From Candidatus Hydrogenedentota bacterium (GTDB lineage: Bacteria > Hydrogenedentota > Hydrogenedentia > Hydrogenedentales > JAEUWI01): a stretch of DNA of 64,000 nt. The position numbers were made by a program. The stretch is from positions 1-64,000 of the forward strand of contig JAXMOL010000030.1 in assembly GCA_034669905.1 (NCBI GenBank). Direction: 5' to 3'. Positions 27,001 to 39,000 of this stretch are shown here, in pieces. Each line of letters begins with the position of its first letter. The first letter of the stretch is position 1.

Positions 27001-30000
27001 ATGTTTGAGCCAGCGTTCTCAGTCCAGGCAGCAGAATTATTTCGCATAGCCCCCATTACCAGTGTTCAGCGTTGGACTCCATTGTTTGGACACTAGCGCG
27101 TGTTTCTGAAGTGTATCCGTGTCGGGATAATGCCATCGGACCGACGGCGCTCCACAGAGACGGAGCCTTGGTGTCTCCCGGGCAGCGGTTAGGACTAACC
27201 GAACAAAAAATCCCCGTTGGAAAACCAACGGGGATGAAGTAACCGGTATATATTGGTCGGGGTGGTAGGATTCGAACCTACGGCCCCCTGCTCCCAAAGC
27301 AGTCAAATAGACAGTACAGCTACGACACTAAGTGTCTTTGTTGCAAGGTTTTATAACTCTATCAGACTTTACCCTTCATTGCAAGTATTACCTTCATTTT
27401 GGGGGTGTTTTGGACCATTTCGGGTACCATACCCGGATCGTCTATTTACCATCCACCCCGAAAAGCGCGGGGCTCGTAGCTCCGGACCCATCGCCGAATT
27501 GGGGTACGGGACGGCCGTTTCTGCGCCTCGATTTCCTCTGGCGATAATTGCCATTTACGTAACACAACCACTGATTTAGTTGCGTTATCTGATTCGTTAC
27601 TGTGTGTTTCGTTGTCATCCTCGGCGAACGCGTCAAAGATGATCTCTGTCAGTTCCTCGCGGTCGCCACTTGTCGGCAATCCCAAATTGGTAGCCACCTC
27701 GCGCAATTCCTCGTCGCTCAGCGCATTTAGGTCTACTTCCTCATGGTCTGTATCGACTGAGGGGGAGTTTTCGTCACACGCGGCAACCTCGTGCGTTTTG
27801 CGTGCTTTCCAGGCCGCAACCTTGCACCTGTCATCACAGAATTTCCTTCGACGGCCTGTTTTTGGCTGTTCCAGCGGTTTTTCACAGTGCTGGCAAGTAT
27901 CCATGGATTTGGTCCTTTCGTCTCGGCTCCAGCCCCCCCGGGGGGACTAACAGTGCAACAAATACCCGCAGTGCGTCGTCTGACCGACCTCTACCCTCCC
28001 CCGGGGGGGGACCCGTCGCCTTTTGGGGCGCTCAGGCCCCCCGATCCGGGGTGTTTCGTGGCCTCACGCGGTCGGTGTGGCCATGGTTCGTGCGGTTTGG
28101 CCCTGGTGGCAGGGTGCGCCATGCACGGGATGGGGTGCGCGGGCCTTCTGCACGGTGCGGGCTTCCAGTGCACGTAACCGCTCGCATGGCTCTATCGGTT
28201 CAAGGGCCAGATCCAGCGCGGCGGAATTGGTCGCCCTCATTCCATGGACCAGGTACAGCGCCACGATACGGCGTGTGCGTGCTACCCCATCCAAGCCCAG
28301 CGCCACGGTGACCACCTGGGCCATGCGCCTATGCTGTTCGCCTCGGTTACGGCTCGCCTGCCTTGCGAGGTACCAGGCGGCCTTCAGGCGGTCTTGAAGT
28401 TGTTCCCGTGTCGGGGCCCCGCCATCGACCGGGAAAGAGTCATGGAAGGCAACCAGGGCGTCTTGGGCTTCGGGCGATATCTGGTGTTTGCACTCTTCGA
28501 AGTGTTGGATCACTTCCTCACGGCTTCGAAAGTTCATCAATGCACCTCCTTCGGCTTGGCAGGCAACCGCACGCCACGGGACTCCAGATGCTTTTTGCAC
28601 TTGTTCGCAATGTAGGCCCCGGGCTTGTTTAGCGTTCCCAGCCCTTTCACCTCTCGGGCTTGAGGGTCCTTGCATTGCTCGACGTACTCGACAGCCTCAA
28701 AGAGCACACCAACCCCGTCGTGAGCCTTCATCAGCCCGCCCACCTCCTTCCACCATGCACGGTAGTGCTCTGGATCGTCTGCAGCCTTTCGAAGCCGTCG
28801 CCAAAGCTCAGTGCCGTGGTGCTTCGAAAGGACCGACTCCGACAAATCCGAAACCGATGAAATCGCCGAATCCGACCGACCGACCGAATCCGACCTTCCC
28901 CCTGGTTCAGGGTTTGGCCTGGGCTTTGGCTTGTCACGTGGTCCGGGCTCGGTTCGGCTCGGTATCGGTATCGGCAAGGTATCGGTATCGGTATCGGTAT
29001 CGGTAGGCGCGTTTCCGCGCGGAAACGCGCGATTCCGCGCGCGGCTGTTTTCCGGTGGGTTTTCCGGGCTATCTGGTGGCGTATCCTGGGGGTTTCCTGG
29101 GCCTGAATCGGAGGGCGGATCACCCCCTGGATTGTCCATCATTTTCTTGTAGTCTCGCTCAATTTCCGCCCGATCTTTCGTATGGATCCGGGTCAACTTC
29201 GGGATGGAACCATCCGCGAAAAAGGCGCGGGACTTCACGAGGGCATTGTGTACCGAGTCTTCGCAATGTTCCGCCCAATCATGGACAATCAACCTGTGCC
29301 TGTCGTCACGGTCCAACCAGTTACGGTTAACAAGGGCCTCAATCAATTCGCCTGGGTCGCCGTCGTACTCGAGGCCCATTGCTAACTCTTCGTCTGTAAA
29401 CTTCCCTATGTTGCCCGCTGGTGTGTTTCGCGCTGTAAAGTCCCACATGAGTTGCAGTAGACCCACAGCGGCATATAGGGGAAGGTTCAGATCCTTCTTC
29501 AGGAGTTGAAACTTCATGAGGCTGTCAGTGCCTTTTTTCATAGATCAACCTCCTCTCCTGTTGACTTTCGCCCCTGATTTAGAGTAGTATCTATCTCACG
29601 GCTCTGTTGCAAGATTCGTTGCCCGCCCAATCGTTTCGCGACGGTTGCGGCGGGCGGTCCTTTTCTGGGGTACATTTCGTTTCCTTAGGGTTCTCTCTGG
29701 CCAGACAGAATTTAGGAAATGGCCTGGAAGCCGTCTACAGGACTTCACGGGCCTGTGCGGGGTTTCCCCCTGGGTTTCGCTGATTGGAGCCCTTACCGGC
29801 CGATTTCAGGGCCGCCGTGTTTTCCCTGAGCGCTTGGGTCATTTCTCCCACCCCCTCCTTCAGGCCCTCGGTGTCAACGGGGAATTCAGCACGGGCCGCT
29901 TCCACATCGAAGGTCCGGGCACGGGTGGCCTTCAATCGCTCCAATTGTGCGGGGGAATACGTGCCGGCATTGTATGGCGAATTATTCTCGAGTCGCTCCA

Positions 30001-36000: not shown

Positions 36001-39000
36001 TAAGCCAGGCAGAACACCCACCCGGCGAATGGCATAGTTCAGAATCAGCCCAATTCCTTCGCGATTTCCAGGGCCAGGGCCTCGTTTTTCTCCGCGTAGA
36101 GCTCCGATGTGTCTACCCGGCTATGACCTAACGCAATCGACGCGGCCTCGAGTCCGGATTGTTTCCGCACCTCGGTGCCGTGGTTGTGCCTCAGTCGGTG
36201 AGGGTGCCAATGGGGCACACCCGCCTTCACACATGCCCGACGAATGGCCCGGGCGTATGAATAGCGGTCGTAGCTCTCGCTTAGCGTGCGGGTGGTCTTC
36301 CTGGGGTTCGGCTTCTGATTCTTTCGGCGGTGGGTAGTCGCTTGGGCCGCCCTCTCCCGTGCCGCATCTTTTGGGCTGAATAGATAGGCGGACACAGGAC
36401 GATCCTGCAGGAAGGGACGGATCACGGCCTGGGCGCGGGGTCCGAAGTACAACGTGCGGCGCTTCCCTCGGTGGGCGGACTTGTGCCGGTCCAGGCGCAC
36501 AGTCCAGACTTCCCCGGAAGTATCCAGGTCCACGGGGCGCAAATAGCAGATCTCAGATGTCCGGGCACCGGTGAGTAGTTGCAGCTGAATCAGGGCCCAG
36601 ACTTGGCGGGATACGTGGGGCTCTACCGCTTCCACATGGGCCATGGGCACCGGTAACACCTTTTGGGGTTCCCGTGCCTGGGTCCGGCCCGCTTTCAACC
36701 CTTCCACGGCGTCCAGGGCCGTAAGGGTCTGGGGGTTGACCAACTCATGGGACACCCCCCACCGAAAGATTGCCTTAGTGATGGATGTTTTCTTGTTGGC
36801 CGTGGTTCGGGCGGCACCCTCCGCGATCCAGTGCTCACGCAATGCGCGCAATGCCAGGGGCCCGAAGGCTTCGCACTGGTCCGAACCGTACAAGCGGCGA
36901 ATATCGCGGATTACGCCACGGATCACGCCAATGTGGGTGCCCTCTTGATCATAGAACTCCTTTGCATAGGTCCAGTACCGTTCCAGGAGTTCGACTATCA
37001 GGAGGCCTTCGGCGGGGGCGGGAAGGTTCCGACCACAGGCCAACCACTCCTGAATGACACGGTCGTAGTTGGCCTGAACGTCTGGGGAATCCGACCGGCC
37101 AAGGTATTTTCGTCGGCCGTTCAGATTGACGTAGTATTGCCCGGAAGCCTTGTGAAGGCGCATTTCGGGGATTGTGGGGCGGCGGCCGCTCATTGGGCCG
37201 GTCCAGGATCAGTAATCTGGTGGTGGGACTGCTCTTGACAGGTATCCACGGTACGACTCCCGTTTTCCGGGTATATACCCGAAAAACCGTTGTAGTGTCG
37301 CACCGCCAATGCTGGCGGGTAACCTGTCTAAGTGACTGATTCGACTGGATTTGTATATTGGTCGGGGTGGTAGGATTCGAACCTACGGCCCCCTGCTCCC
37401 AAAGCAGGTGCGCTAACCGGACTGCGCCACACCCCGACCGGGGAAGAGGAAGTATAGCATAGCGTCCGCGCTGGAACCAACATCCGTGACGGATTCTTTT
37501 CCTGCCTGTGAGTCCTTTCCCCGACGCCGTCCCACCGCGCTGGTTGTGCCGCAGGGGCCGGATTCTCTATGCTGTGCTTGGTGTGTTGGTCCGTCGTGCT
37601 CCCCCCTGGAACCGGGGGCCTTTCGGGCGGCCTTCCCCACCGGTTTTCACTGCTTTTCACCACCCACGCAGGGAGTCGTCGTGCGTTCCAATGAATCGTC
37701 TCCGGGGGAGTACCCCGCCTGGTCTGCCGCAGGCATGGCCCTGTTTTTCCTTTATCTGGAGTCGCTGAAGGCCATGCGGTCCTCCCAGTGGAGTGGCCTG
37801 CTGCCGAGCGATTGGCTGGGCGTCGGAATGACCGGGCTGTTCTATGCCCTCTTAGTCTGGGCGCTGGTGGTGGGCATTCGTCGGGGGACTTCAGGGTTGG
37901 GCCTTCGCGTTCCGGGCTGCGCCCTGTTTGTCGCCGGGACGGTCCTTTGGGGCCTCTTGAGCACGCACCGGGAGGAAACCCCCACGCTGGATGACGGCAT
38001 TGTGGCGGTCGTACTGGCGGGCTTCAGCTTCGCCCTGTGGTTGGGCAACAGAACGGGGCGCTATTCGGAGGCCCAACTGGGTGGCGCGCTGATCGTCCTC
38101 TGGCTTTCGGGGCTCGCAGCCCTTCATGGTGCGGGGCACTATTTCCTTTTCAGTCCCCACCGTGCCCGGGAGGTCACCCTCTTCCCCGCCCTGTGGCTCG
38201 CGCCCGTGGGCCTTGGGCTGGCAACCGTGCTGTGCTGGAAATCCCGAACGTCGTTGCTGGCCGTGGGCGGCGTGGTCGGGGTGGCGACGCCCCTGCTGGC
38301 CGTGTTCGCCCTCCTTTATACGCCTGCGCGCGATGATGGGGCGCAACAGCCCAATATGGTCTTCCTCATCAGCGACACGCTCCGGGCCGATTATTGCAGT
38401 GTCTACGGCGGCGACGTGCCCACGCCACGGCTGGAAGCCATGGCCGATTCGGGCACCCGCTTTGACCGGCACTATGCCCTCTCCCCCTGGACCCTCCCCT
38501 CCATGACGGGGCTCTTCTCTTCCCAGTACCCCAAATCCCTCACGCCCGATTCCGATCATGAGGCGTGGATCCTCCAGATGAATCAGTATGAGGTGGACTA
38601 CGACACGCCGACCCTCCCCATGCGCCTGGAGGAAGCGGGGTATCGGACGGGCGCCTTCACGGCGAACGCTTTTCTCCCCGTCGTGCCCGGCATGATGTTT
38701 GGCTATCAGGACCGGGCGAGTGCCCATCCCATCCTCCTGGAAGACAACGGCTATTTCAATCAGCTCCCCTTCCTCAGTGCGGCGCTCCGGGCCTGGTGTC
38801 CCGTGTTGGTGGACATTCGCCCTCACAACACGACCCACGATCTTGATCACTACGCCCGGGCCTTCATCCGCCGCCACCGGGACAAGCCTTTCTTCCTGTG
38901 GATTCACTACATCGATCCCCACGCACCCTATGATCCCCCGGAAGATCTGCGGCGGGTGACCGAAGGGCCCTGGCCCTTCTTTCATCCCTATGTGGGCGGC

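Follow-up and report, generated by a model that had tools for sequence, protein, structure and literature searches.

Among described phage satellites, the lambda-cos PICIs (EcCICFT073 and the cos-rpp islands) share with the element reported here att boundaries, an integrase, small HTH regulators, and a replicon. They also share capsid and head decoration genes, a cosQ-cosN sequence with a small gene ~100 bp further on, and the lack of a terminase (PMC6092414, PMC9026076). A small terminase was not detected in the element, and cos-type PICIs likewise have none (PMC6092414). The element differs from these PICIs by adding a protease-scaffold protein and a tape measure, by carrying a Zn-ribbon/SAP protein rather than the winged-helix Rpp next to cos, and in its host, which is probably a member of the Hydrogenedentota. 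Through its tape measure it also breaks the SatelliteFinder PICI model, in which tail genes are 'forbidden'.

The cf-PICIs resemble the element in having their own capsid and protease and a borrowed tail, but what defines them is the presence of terL and of head-tail adaptor/connector genes (10.1101/2022.09.14.508007), none of which was detected in the element. Some cf-PICIs carry putative tmp genes (PMC12987554, legend of Extended Data Fig. 10). The PLEs of Vibrio cholerae, like the element, encode a tape measure and lack a terminase, and the PLE tape measure was shown to be built into chimeric tails (PMC12987554). However, PLEs rely on the capsid protein of the helper ICP1 and carry a TAC gene and, in PLE11, a baseplate hub gene (PMC12987554), whereas the element has its own capsid and no TAC or hub recognised by profiles; a TAC profile gave no match in the element.

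The EPIPs of Mycolicibacterium aichiense are about 11 kb long with listed integrase, HTH, scaffold, major capsid, and tape measure genes (PMC12822802), and the element likewise holds a capsid, a scaffold, and a tape measure within about 11 kb. Small heads and altered tails were seen by EM for EPIPs (PMC12822802, a preprint that is inconsistent on capsid genes, listing one and also describing them as lacking). EPIPs differ in encoding a terS, a head-to-tail adaptor, a stopper, and a serine integrase (PMC12822802); the first three were undetected in the element, whose integrase is of the tyrosine type. Portal-less HK97 'mini genomes' of 5-11.6 kb are also similar in having an integrase, rep, capsid, and scaffold without a terminase or portal, and one of their ORFs bears a tape measure annotation (PMC13669383). 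These are encapsulin-domain gut contigs (PMC13669383), whereas the element has a PF25209 capsid, with the ruler and a cos-like site in its conserved core.

Because capsid- and tape-measure-carrying satellites have already been published (PMC6092414, PMC12987554, PMC12822802), the categorical novelty implied by the initial annotation was overstated. Most likely, the element is a phage parasite that joins tricks known separately from other satellites. We place at roughly 75% the probability that it is a cos-packaged, PICI-like, helper-dependent satellite that makes its own head and ruler and borrows a motor, portal, neck, and tail.

Boundaries and gene content

The window analysed is a stretch of 64,000 nucleotides from a Candidatus Hydrogenedentota bacterium. 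As annotated initially, it contains an element bounded by 54-bp direct repeats at tRNA-Pro; the repeats (27249-27302 and 37354-37407) are 100% identical, are spaced 10,105 bp apart, and duplicate the 3' part of the tRNA-Pro(TGG) gene at 37359-37436 on the minus strand. A genome search yielded no further full copies of the repeat. The 12 intact ORFs of the element are all on the minus strand, contain no internal stops, and fill 87% of the 10,105-bp unit, with most overlapping or abutting. The features are as follows, with those near the cos-like site given further below.

27249..27302, no strand: distal att repeat
28064..28537, minus strand: 157-aa ORF (orf157), coupled to rep
28537..29541, minus strand: replication initiator (phrog_9474) with internal short repeats
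29735..31336, minus strand: tape measure protein, 533 aa (PF10145/TIGR01760)
31337..31537, minus strand: 66-aa ORF of no family, by position a candidate ruler chaperone or accessory
31534..31863, minus strand: DUF1580-like small HTH, below the Pfam cut-off
31985..33091, minus strand: major capsid protein, 368 aa (PF25209)
33106..33531, minus strand: head decoration/cement protein, 141 aa (PF09956/phrog_122)
33531..34577, minus strand: prohead protease/scaffold, 348 aa, with an N-domain like cos-phage proteases
34574..35251, minus strand: Xre/Cro-type HTH regulator heading the coupled structural operon
35288..35369, no strand: 22-nt inverted repeat holding two GAAATATATTTC palindromes
35554..35886, minus strand: 110-aa accessory ORF with sub-threshold ParD/zinc-ribbon hints
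36045..37193, minus strand: tyrosine integrase, 382 aa (PF00589)
37354..37407, no strand: att repeat on the integrase side, comprising the 3' part of the intact tRNA gene and 5 nt more
37359..37436, minus strand: tRNA-Pro(TGG), integration target

Of the core features in SatelliteFinder's PICI definition, an integrase at a specific att site and a capsid morphogenesis gene are both present. Candidates for the regulator slot (alpA/merR/stl type) are the Xre HTH and the sub-threshold DUF1580 HTH. With regard to the primase-replicase slot, the element in the window has a replication initiator rather than a primase, and a related copy (G064) has a primase. In reads from four runs of one study, which cover contigs only and are silent on excision, the depth over the element is like that of its flanks and no read joins the att sites.

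The 348-aa protein itself has no family match. However, its orthologue in G066 matches the head maturation protease phrog_15531, and a comparison of its N-domain with phage prohead proteases gave E values of 1e-39 to 1e-51. Its last 60 residues show a weak likeness to the C-termini of proteins from the G088 and G111 prophages, such that the scaffold tail seems to go with the lineage of the capsid. The element capsids form their own clade apart from prophage capsids (SH-aLRT 100, quick tree), and the nearest placed phages, G088 and L016, have another portal family, with L016 also having another terminase family. Profiles of the capsid and protease found no sequence relatives in the PDB. The tape measure exceeds the Pfam and NCBIfam cut-offs, and its low-confidence structure model (pLDDT 42) is all helical. 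No relatives of it were confirmed in IMG/VR or among named phages, and a search of the L029 phylum matched one of 401 genomes, in an ordinary prophage. The 66-aa ORF immediately precedes the tape measure in all three bounded copies of the element.

The GAAATATATTTC palindromes occur twice in the genome, both times within the 35288..35369 repeat, which we infer to be a candidate operator of the structural operon. A promoter scan stayed at chance level (3 versus 3.7). The Xre HTH gene is kept in four of four copies, and its model (pLDDT 75) matches repressor-type HTH folds only, all at E>0.05 and none at E<=0.001; an assignment of this protein as terS was rejected. In the ESM Atlas, all leads for the HTH and Zn-ribbon/SAP proteins stayed below 0.9. 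The DUF1580-like HTH is a probable excisionase/AlpA-type regulator, and the short repeats within the replication initiator gene are a possible origin. A homologue of orf157 in G069 scored 90, a value reached by none of 1000 shuffles, while blastp gave no match between the two. In G066, a DnaC-like loader occupies the place of orf157, and thus orf157 is probably a replication helper. The 110-aa ORF has no homologue in other copies of the element.

The initial annotation reported no terminase, portal, neck, or tail tube, and this genuinely holds: 28 phage-seed profiles (terS, terL, portal, gpW, connector, neck, tube, chaperone) applied to 887 six-frame segments from four islands gave no sound match in the three bounded copies. 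The one marginal match had an E value of 0.042 and lay off-frame within the window tape-measure gene, and the same search recovered a neck gene in the G091 island (E 1e-24). The terL, portal, neck, and tail tube set of a self-sufficient tailed prophage is absent from the element.

Related copies and sequence constraint

Three bounded copies measure 10,105, 10,548, and about 11,134 bp, with att sites at tRNA-Pro, tRNA-Val, and a palindromic 17-mer. Two further genomes of the same genus carry the additional bounded copies, and a third carries a partial copy at tRNA-Met; all copies are from a small number of related genomes. The tRNA-Val sister copy noted initially is confirmed as that of G069, which spans 10,548 bp and has an exact repeat of 48 bp, and the copy behind another integrase is that of G066. 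The window integrase is 58% identical to that of G069 and 43% to that of G064, and the replicon differs among copies (rep plus orf157, DnaD/O-like plus DnaC, or primase). The cos-like site, Zn-ribbon/SAP gene, and HTH gene are found in four of four copies, and the protease-cement-capsid-small ORF-ruler series in all three bounded ones.

An earlier capsid count of five in 135 phylum genomes is to be qualified, as the query matches seven of 135 genomes and these are of mixed kind: three elements, one decayed remnant, two ordinary prophage head modules, and one other island. G088 and G111 were rejected as element copies because their capsid genes have portal or neck/tail genes as neighbours. Scans of viral and metagenome contigs with a single capsid protein gave no match, and a capsid alignment scan of metagenomes found one distant contig of 2.8 kb.

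A decayed prophage, inherited as the remnant of a single ancestral deletion that took out both the terS-to-portal and the neck-to-tube stretch, would account for the order of cos, protease, decoration, capsid, and ruler, which is that of a phage late region. Ordinary prophages with the capsid family of the element exist in the phylum, as does a truly decayed copy in G068, which is 2.9 kb long and retains a broken piece of the capsid. However, att sites, integrases, and replicons differ between copies, remnants of motor or tail genes are absent in six frames, and the distribution is patchy, with capsid matches in four of nine genomes of the genus, one being the remnant. In addition, the four structural genes have pN of 0.25-0.44 against pS of 0.62-0.87 (12 pairs); frames remain intact and proteins conserved although synonymous sites are almost saturated, which argues against decay. 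We consider this explanation very improbable, and the initial view of an element type rather than a decayed prophage is borne out by three bounded copies at three att sites with a common reduced gene set, by the intact frames, and by the low pN relative to pS.

The same constraint bears on whether the element travels in helper-built particles via cos and uses its capsid, cement, protease, and tape measure mainly to poison or resize helper assembly, as interference or defence, with no virion of its own. EcCICFT073 has capsid and decoration genes yet is packaged into heads of full size, and deletion of these genes left interference unrelieved (PMC6092414); the capsid lineage of the element also differs from that of cos phages. 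Nevertheless, the whole protease-scaffold-cement-capsid set is retained together under purifying selection, its scaffold tail seems to fit the capsid, and the unit size is constant at 10-11 kb, making this role unlikely.

The cos-like site and its adjacent gene

A lambda-type cos-like site lies ahead of the Zn-ribbon/SAP gene, the position of terS or rpp, in all four copies.

27974..28014, minus strand: cos-like site, with heptamer GGGTCCC (28014-28008), 22-nt spacer, and 12-nt segment
27985-27974, minus strand: predicted 12-nt cohesive-end segment GGTCAGACGACG
27446..27904, minus strand: Zn-ribbon (four invariant Cys) plus SAP-like protein, 152 aa

The heptamer is cosQ-like. The lambda record has GGGTCCT 23 nt ahead of its right end, and the heptamer site is reported to be invariant in lambda-like phages (PMC4669245), with the window GGGTCCC one change off. 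The Zn-ribbon/SAP start lies about 80 bp past the predicted cut site, and the distances from cos to start in the four copies (81, 92, 163, and about 79 bp) match those of N15 terS (89 bp), PICI rpp (102 bp), and lambda Nu1 (191 bp) (PMC9026076), which we count in favour of the cos reading. The motif had already been defined when a protein search turned up the fourth copy, whose site is at the expected place.

Among 80 viral loci matching a cos pattern built from the element site and those of phages L032/L033, which include many near relatives of each other and are mostly the L032/L033 variant (2-3 changes from the element 12-mers), 68 have a same-strand gpA terL 2.0-2.8 kb downstream and none has one upstream or on the opposite strand. 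A control pattern gave 0 of 26. Homologues of the element protease are present in 36 of the 80 loci. Within the same phylum, the G081 prophage carries a similar site that precedes its terS by about 90 bp. The bare heptamer was not enriched in either of two tests (3/43 versus 16/311; 17 versus 21 per 267 kb), an nhmmer profile of the element cos region recovered no phage locus at E<1 among the loci searched, and of the 12 gpA matches in the phylum, 10 loci with flanks of only 0.3-1.5 kb were inspected, two of which have the heptamer upstream. Judged from sequence and position, a cosQ-cosN copy stands directly ahead of a small gene as in cos-rpp PICIs, and its conservation points to the packaging route of the element.

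Use of the motif as a replication origin was rejected because it persists across three replicon types. The site had been overlooked in the earlier reading of this element.

The Zn-ribbon/SAP protein is a candidate packaging adaptor. It shows no similarity to terS profiles, and its domain type differs from the winged helix of Rpp, TerS binding being a separate matter. A complex prediction that used the terS of G081 as a substitute, although its host belongs to another family, scored 0.00, which we take neither way. No small terminase was found in the element with PHROGs, Pfam, NCBIfam, or six-frame terS profiles, so the initial suggestion that a family-less small gene could be one gained no match in any test, and the terS place is held by the Zn-ribbon/SAP gene.

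An autonomous portal-less, tail-less HK97-fold mini-virus or a host-domesticated shell, as proposed for some 'twilight' genomes, seems very improbable as well. Aguilar et al. raised this option for genomes of about 8.75 kb that encode an integrase, RepA, a capsid, and a scaffold yet lack both terminase and portal (PMC13669383), and it would fit the helper search, in which neither terL nor portal was found in G000 (95.7% complete); gpA terL occurs in 12 of 135 phylum genomes and none of nine in the genus of the element. However, without a terminase and a tail there would be no sense in conserving a cos-like site and keeping a tape measure at full length. In addition, the rep matches are of the replisome-organizer type rather than HUH, and the capsid matches PF25209 rather than an encapsulin family.

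A proposed packaging scheme and its implications

For a helper-dependent satellite, helper induction or infection would lead to excision of a 10.1-kb circle and formation of concatemers. The protease-scaffold, capsid, and cement proteins would then build a head around a borrowed portal, and a helper gpA-type terminase would cut the element cos. Steering of that terminase to cos by the Zn-ribbon/SAP protein is the weakest step, to which we give slightly less than even odds. Helper neck and tail parts would finally assemble on the element tape measure, as in PLE chimeric tails. Several points count against this scheme, namely the outcome of the helper search above, the one-base departure of the window heptamer, and the portal family of the nearest phages of the capsid, which differs and would require a lambda-type portal, once borrowed, to fit into a shell foreign to it.

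A more speculative extension, which we regard as possible but rather doubtful, is a satellite class that grafts the shell of one lineage onto the motor and portal of another. The bridge would be a chimeric protease-scaffold that combines an N-domain of cos-phage origin with a capsid-binding tail of the shell lineage. The terminase would be redirected to the satellite cos by the Zn-ribbon/SAP protein, which would be related to neither TerS nor Rpp, and a private tail would be templated by the satellite's own tape measure. If so, 'shell + ruler + address label' would belong to the satellite, and every machine would be borrowed. The unrelated G091 island suggests that such a gene logic has arisen repeatedly within the phylum.

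With its own shell and ruler and a borrowed motor, the element would fill a gap between PICIs (borrowed head, cos), cf-PICIs (own head and motor), and PLEs or EPIPs (own ruler). The Zn-ribbon/SAP protein is a candidate new type of terminase-redirecting protein, and the cos-like site predicts the exact ends of virion DNA. Some HK97 mini-genomes that lack portal and terminase, and whose packaging PMC13669383 leaves open, could likewise be explained as satellites, with a DNA signal that can be tested. Models that forbid tail genes would overlook such elements.

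Boundaries, gene content and copies of the element

The initial annotation described a reduced, tRNA-integrated unit at 27249..37407, and both its repeats and its gene set were recovered. The following features lie in or near it.

23082-23590: intergenic repeats (128 nt × 2 and 50 nt × 3), with raised contig depth
27210-27235 (−): strong terminator-like hairpin, just past the distal att repeat
27249 and 37354: starts of the exact 54-bp att repeats, duplicating the 3ˊ part of tRNA-Pro(TGG) (unit of 10,105 bp)
27446..27904 (−): gene for a Zn-ribbon and SAP-like protein (Zn-SAP)
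27974..28014 (−): cos-like site, before the Zn-SAP gene

The hairpin is probably the original terminator of the tRNA gene, and the intergenic repeats probably represent a genome-wide repeat family.

All 12 intact ORFs of the element are on the minus strand: integrase, orf110, HTH, protease-scaffold, cement, capsid, a DUF1580-like HTH (xis), orf66, tape measure protein (TMP), replication initiator (rep), orf157 and Zn-SAP (orf numbers are lengths in amino acids). Overlaps of 1-4 bases join HTH-protease-cement, xis-orf66 and rep-orf157, and orf66 directly abuts TMP in the window. Family scans of these genes gave no matches to packaging, neck, tube or lysis proteins. Likewise, when six-frame translations were searched with 28 profiles from phage genes of related loci, none of the three bounded copies produced a credible hit; as a positive control, the same run detected a neck gene in another island.

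The other bounded copies are in genomes G069 and G066 of the 135-genome phylum set. As previously annotated, G069 carries the same gene order at tRNA-Val, but between 48-bp exact repeats and over 10,548 bp rather than 55 bp and 10.6 kb. The reported capsid module behind another integrase is that of G066, which encodes its own different integrase, an excisionase, a resolvase, a DnaD/O-like initiator and DnaC, then Zn-SAP, HTH, protease, cement, capsid, a small ORF and TMP. This copy is delimited by two occurrences of a near-palindromic 17-mer that differ at one position and lie about 11,134 bp from each other; of the three att calls it is the weakest. The G066 target (L009:3454, 14588 and ~14740) is a palindromic, REP-like TTGGACA-N4-TGTCC that recurs nearby, and not a tRNA.

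A Zn-SAP profile matched four of the 135 genomes and thereby revealed a partial copy in G064, ordered tRNA-Met, integrase, xis-like gene, primase, two Zn-ribbon ORFs and HTH, where the contig ends before any structural genes. These two ORFs stand in tandem (92 and 143 aa; L262:15809-16521) past the cos-like site, a position occupied by a single Zn-ribbon ORF in the other copies. The capsid matched seven of the 135 genomes and not five as first counted. A capsid gene 68% identical to that of the window is present in a Candidatus Hydrogenedentales bacterium record. At tRNA-Leu, genome G068 retains a 2.9-kb remnant (L013:10503-13507) between 47-bp repeats. It contains a frameshifted, broken piece of the capsid gene and, as unrelated cargo, two ORFs, one of which has repeat-like PHROG matches. 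The candidates in genomes G088 and G111 come from pieces of ordinary prophages. The contigs of homologues P0008 and P0023 (a capsid and a TMP; longest contig 8,967 bp for both) and of capsid homologue P0004 (10,681 bp, about element size) are probably further copies.

A conserved cos-like site

In each of the four copies, the Zn-SAP gene is preceded by a shared non-coding motif: GGGTCC(C/T), then 21-22 nt of G-rich spacer, and a 12-mer.

Table. The 12-mer after the spacer in each copy
Window: GGTCAGACGACG
G069: GGTCGGACGACG
G066: GGTACTGCGTCG
G064: GGTGCTACGACG

In the lambda record, GGGTCCT is located 23 nt before the right end, and we take it to be cosQ. PMC4669245 describes cosQ as a conserved 7-bp element. 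The bare heptamer gave no enrichment in first tests; its 9-base lambda context was found six times in 208 kb of same-strand sequence upstream of terL, compared with once in 1,387 kb of controls. A two-part pattern built from the window, G069 and phages L032/L033, and partly phage-derived, found 82 stretches in IMG/VR, for which 80 loci were returned. Many of these are close kin of each other, and in 68 of the 80 a gpA-type (lambda-like) terL follows 2.0-2.8 kb downstream in the same orientation; it is never upstream or on the opposite strand, and 12 loci are without it. No such terL accompanied the complement control pattern (0/26 loci). At the level of sequence, these loci show the cos-like site to be a conserved pre-terminase signal of that gpA phage group, which the element sites resemble, a likeness that does not imply cutting. 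Compared with the 12-mer of phage locus L137, the element sites match at 10, 11 and 8 of 12 positions.

Among the 135 phylum genomes, the pattern turns up in two, and there only in the elements from which it was drawn; a prophage in G081 has a similar site ~90 bp before terS-terL-portal. The predicted cut lies 81, 92, 163 and ~79 bp before the start codon in the four copies, within the range of N15 terS (89), PICI rpp (102) and lambda Nu1 (191), as given in PMC9026076. In L032/L033, a gene of ~430 aa separates the cos-like site from terL. Loci L129-L208 form a large uncultured gpA-terminase phage group with a very uniform cos-like site ~2.1 kb before terL, which could serve as a genome-end marker.

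Ancestry, proposed mechanism and classification

Across 12 pairs from the three bounded copies, the protease, cement, capsid and TMP genes have pS of 0.62-0.87 and pN of 0.25-0.44. Because pN is well under pS at high pS, the reduced set has existed for a long time and selection continues to act on it. In a quick tree built from 41 capsid sequences (the 12 homologues found first, the best 20 further representatives and nine locus proteins), the three element capsids group with seven unplaced proteins (support 100), leaving those of G088, G111 and phage L016 outside at 35-40% identity. The TMP family comprises 28 clusters of 457-706 aa. Its closest placed relative, in a G121 tail operon (26% identity, E 3e-14), is 550 aa long, so the element ruler has normal phage length and is no stub.

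Among the eight sequences searched, four cos-type phage proteases match the element's protease in its N-domain (E 1e-39 to 1e-51, versus 0.02-0.1 for G088/G111), whereas its final 60 residues match G088/G111 (E 4e-4 and 2e-3) but none of the cos phages. In cement and capsid the element follows the G088/L016 lineage, in which the portal family (and, in L016, the terminase family) differs from the lambda type. Element capsid, cement, TMP and Zn-SAP had no match in any of the 80 cos loci. We infer that a chimeric protease-scaffold may bridge the shell and borrowed parts, the C-terminal signal being modest.

The boundaries, gene set, conservation and cos-like site established here, together with the lack of detected motor or tail genes (TMP aside), accompany a proposed life cycle. 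A helper would trigger excision and replication; the element would form its own small head, as the maintained unit size of 10-11 kb suggests; the helper terminase would cut at the element cos, with Zn-SAP as putative adaptor; and, by analogy with PLE11, the element TMP might be placed in a tail that the helper builds. For PLE11, PMC12987554 reports demonstrated TMP incorporation and its requirement for transfer. No helper phage was found in the element's own genome, and gpA terminases occur in 12 of the 135 phylum genomes, none of which is among the nine of its genus.

The element is real. We put the probability that it is a functional satellite of some form at about 0.87, and consider it likely that it is cos-packaged and builds its own head. 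It would work like a cos-PICI, by its cos site, carrying a PLE/EPIP-style ruler, but it falls outside the strict definitions of PICI, cf-PICI, EPIP and PLE. Within literature that mostly excluded subscription papers, no description of this gene combination or of a Hydrogenedentota satellite was found; gene maps in Extended Data Fig. 10 of PMC12987554 may show similar elements.

Other possible satellite islands

Genome G091, from another family, contains a 12.3-kb tRNA-Lys island (L014:11450 to L015:3777) between 37-bp repeats, with an IS-split integrase, HTH, a protease-capsid fusion, a TMP-like 499-aa gene, a neck-like gene and a primase. The 499-aa protein weakly resembles the G081 protein in the TMP position (E 2e-6). 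No terL, portal or clear cos motif was found in this island, which may represent a separate satellite lineage. Just beyond its distal repeat lies a gene for a reverse transcriptase. On the Tepidisphaeraceae contig L029, a lone capsid gene adjoins primase/helicase with no portal seen, and this is another PICI-like island.
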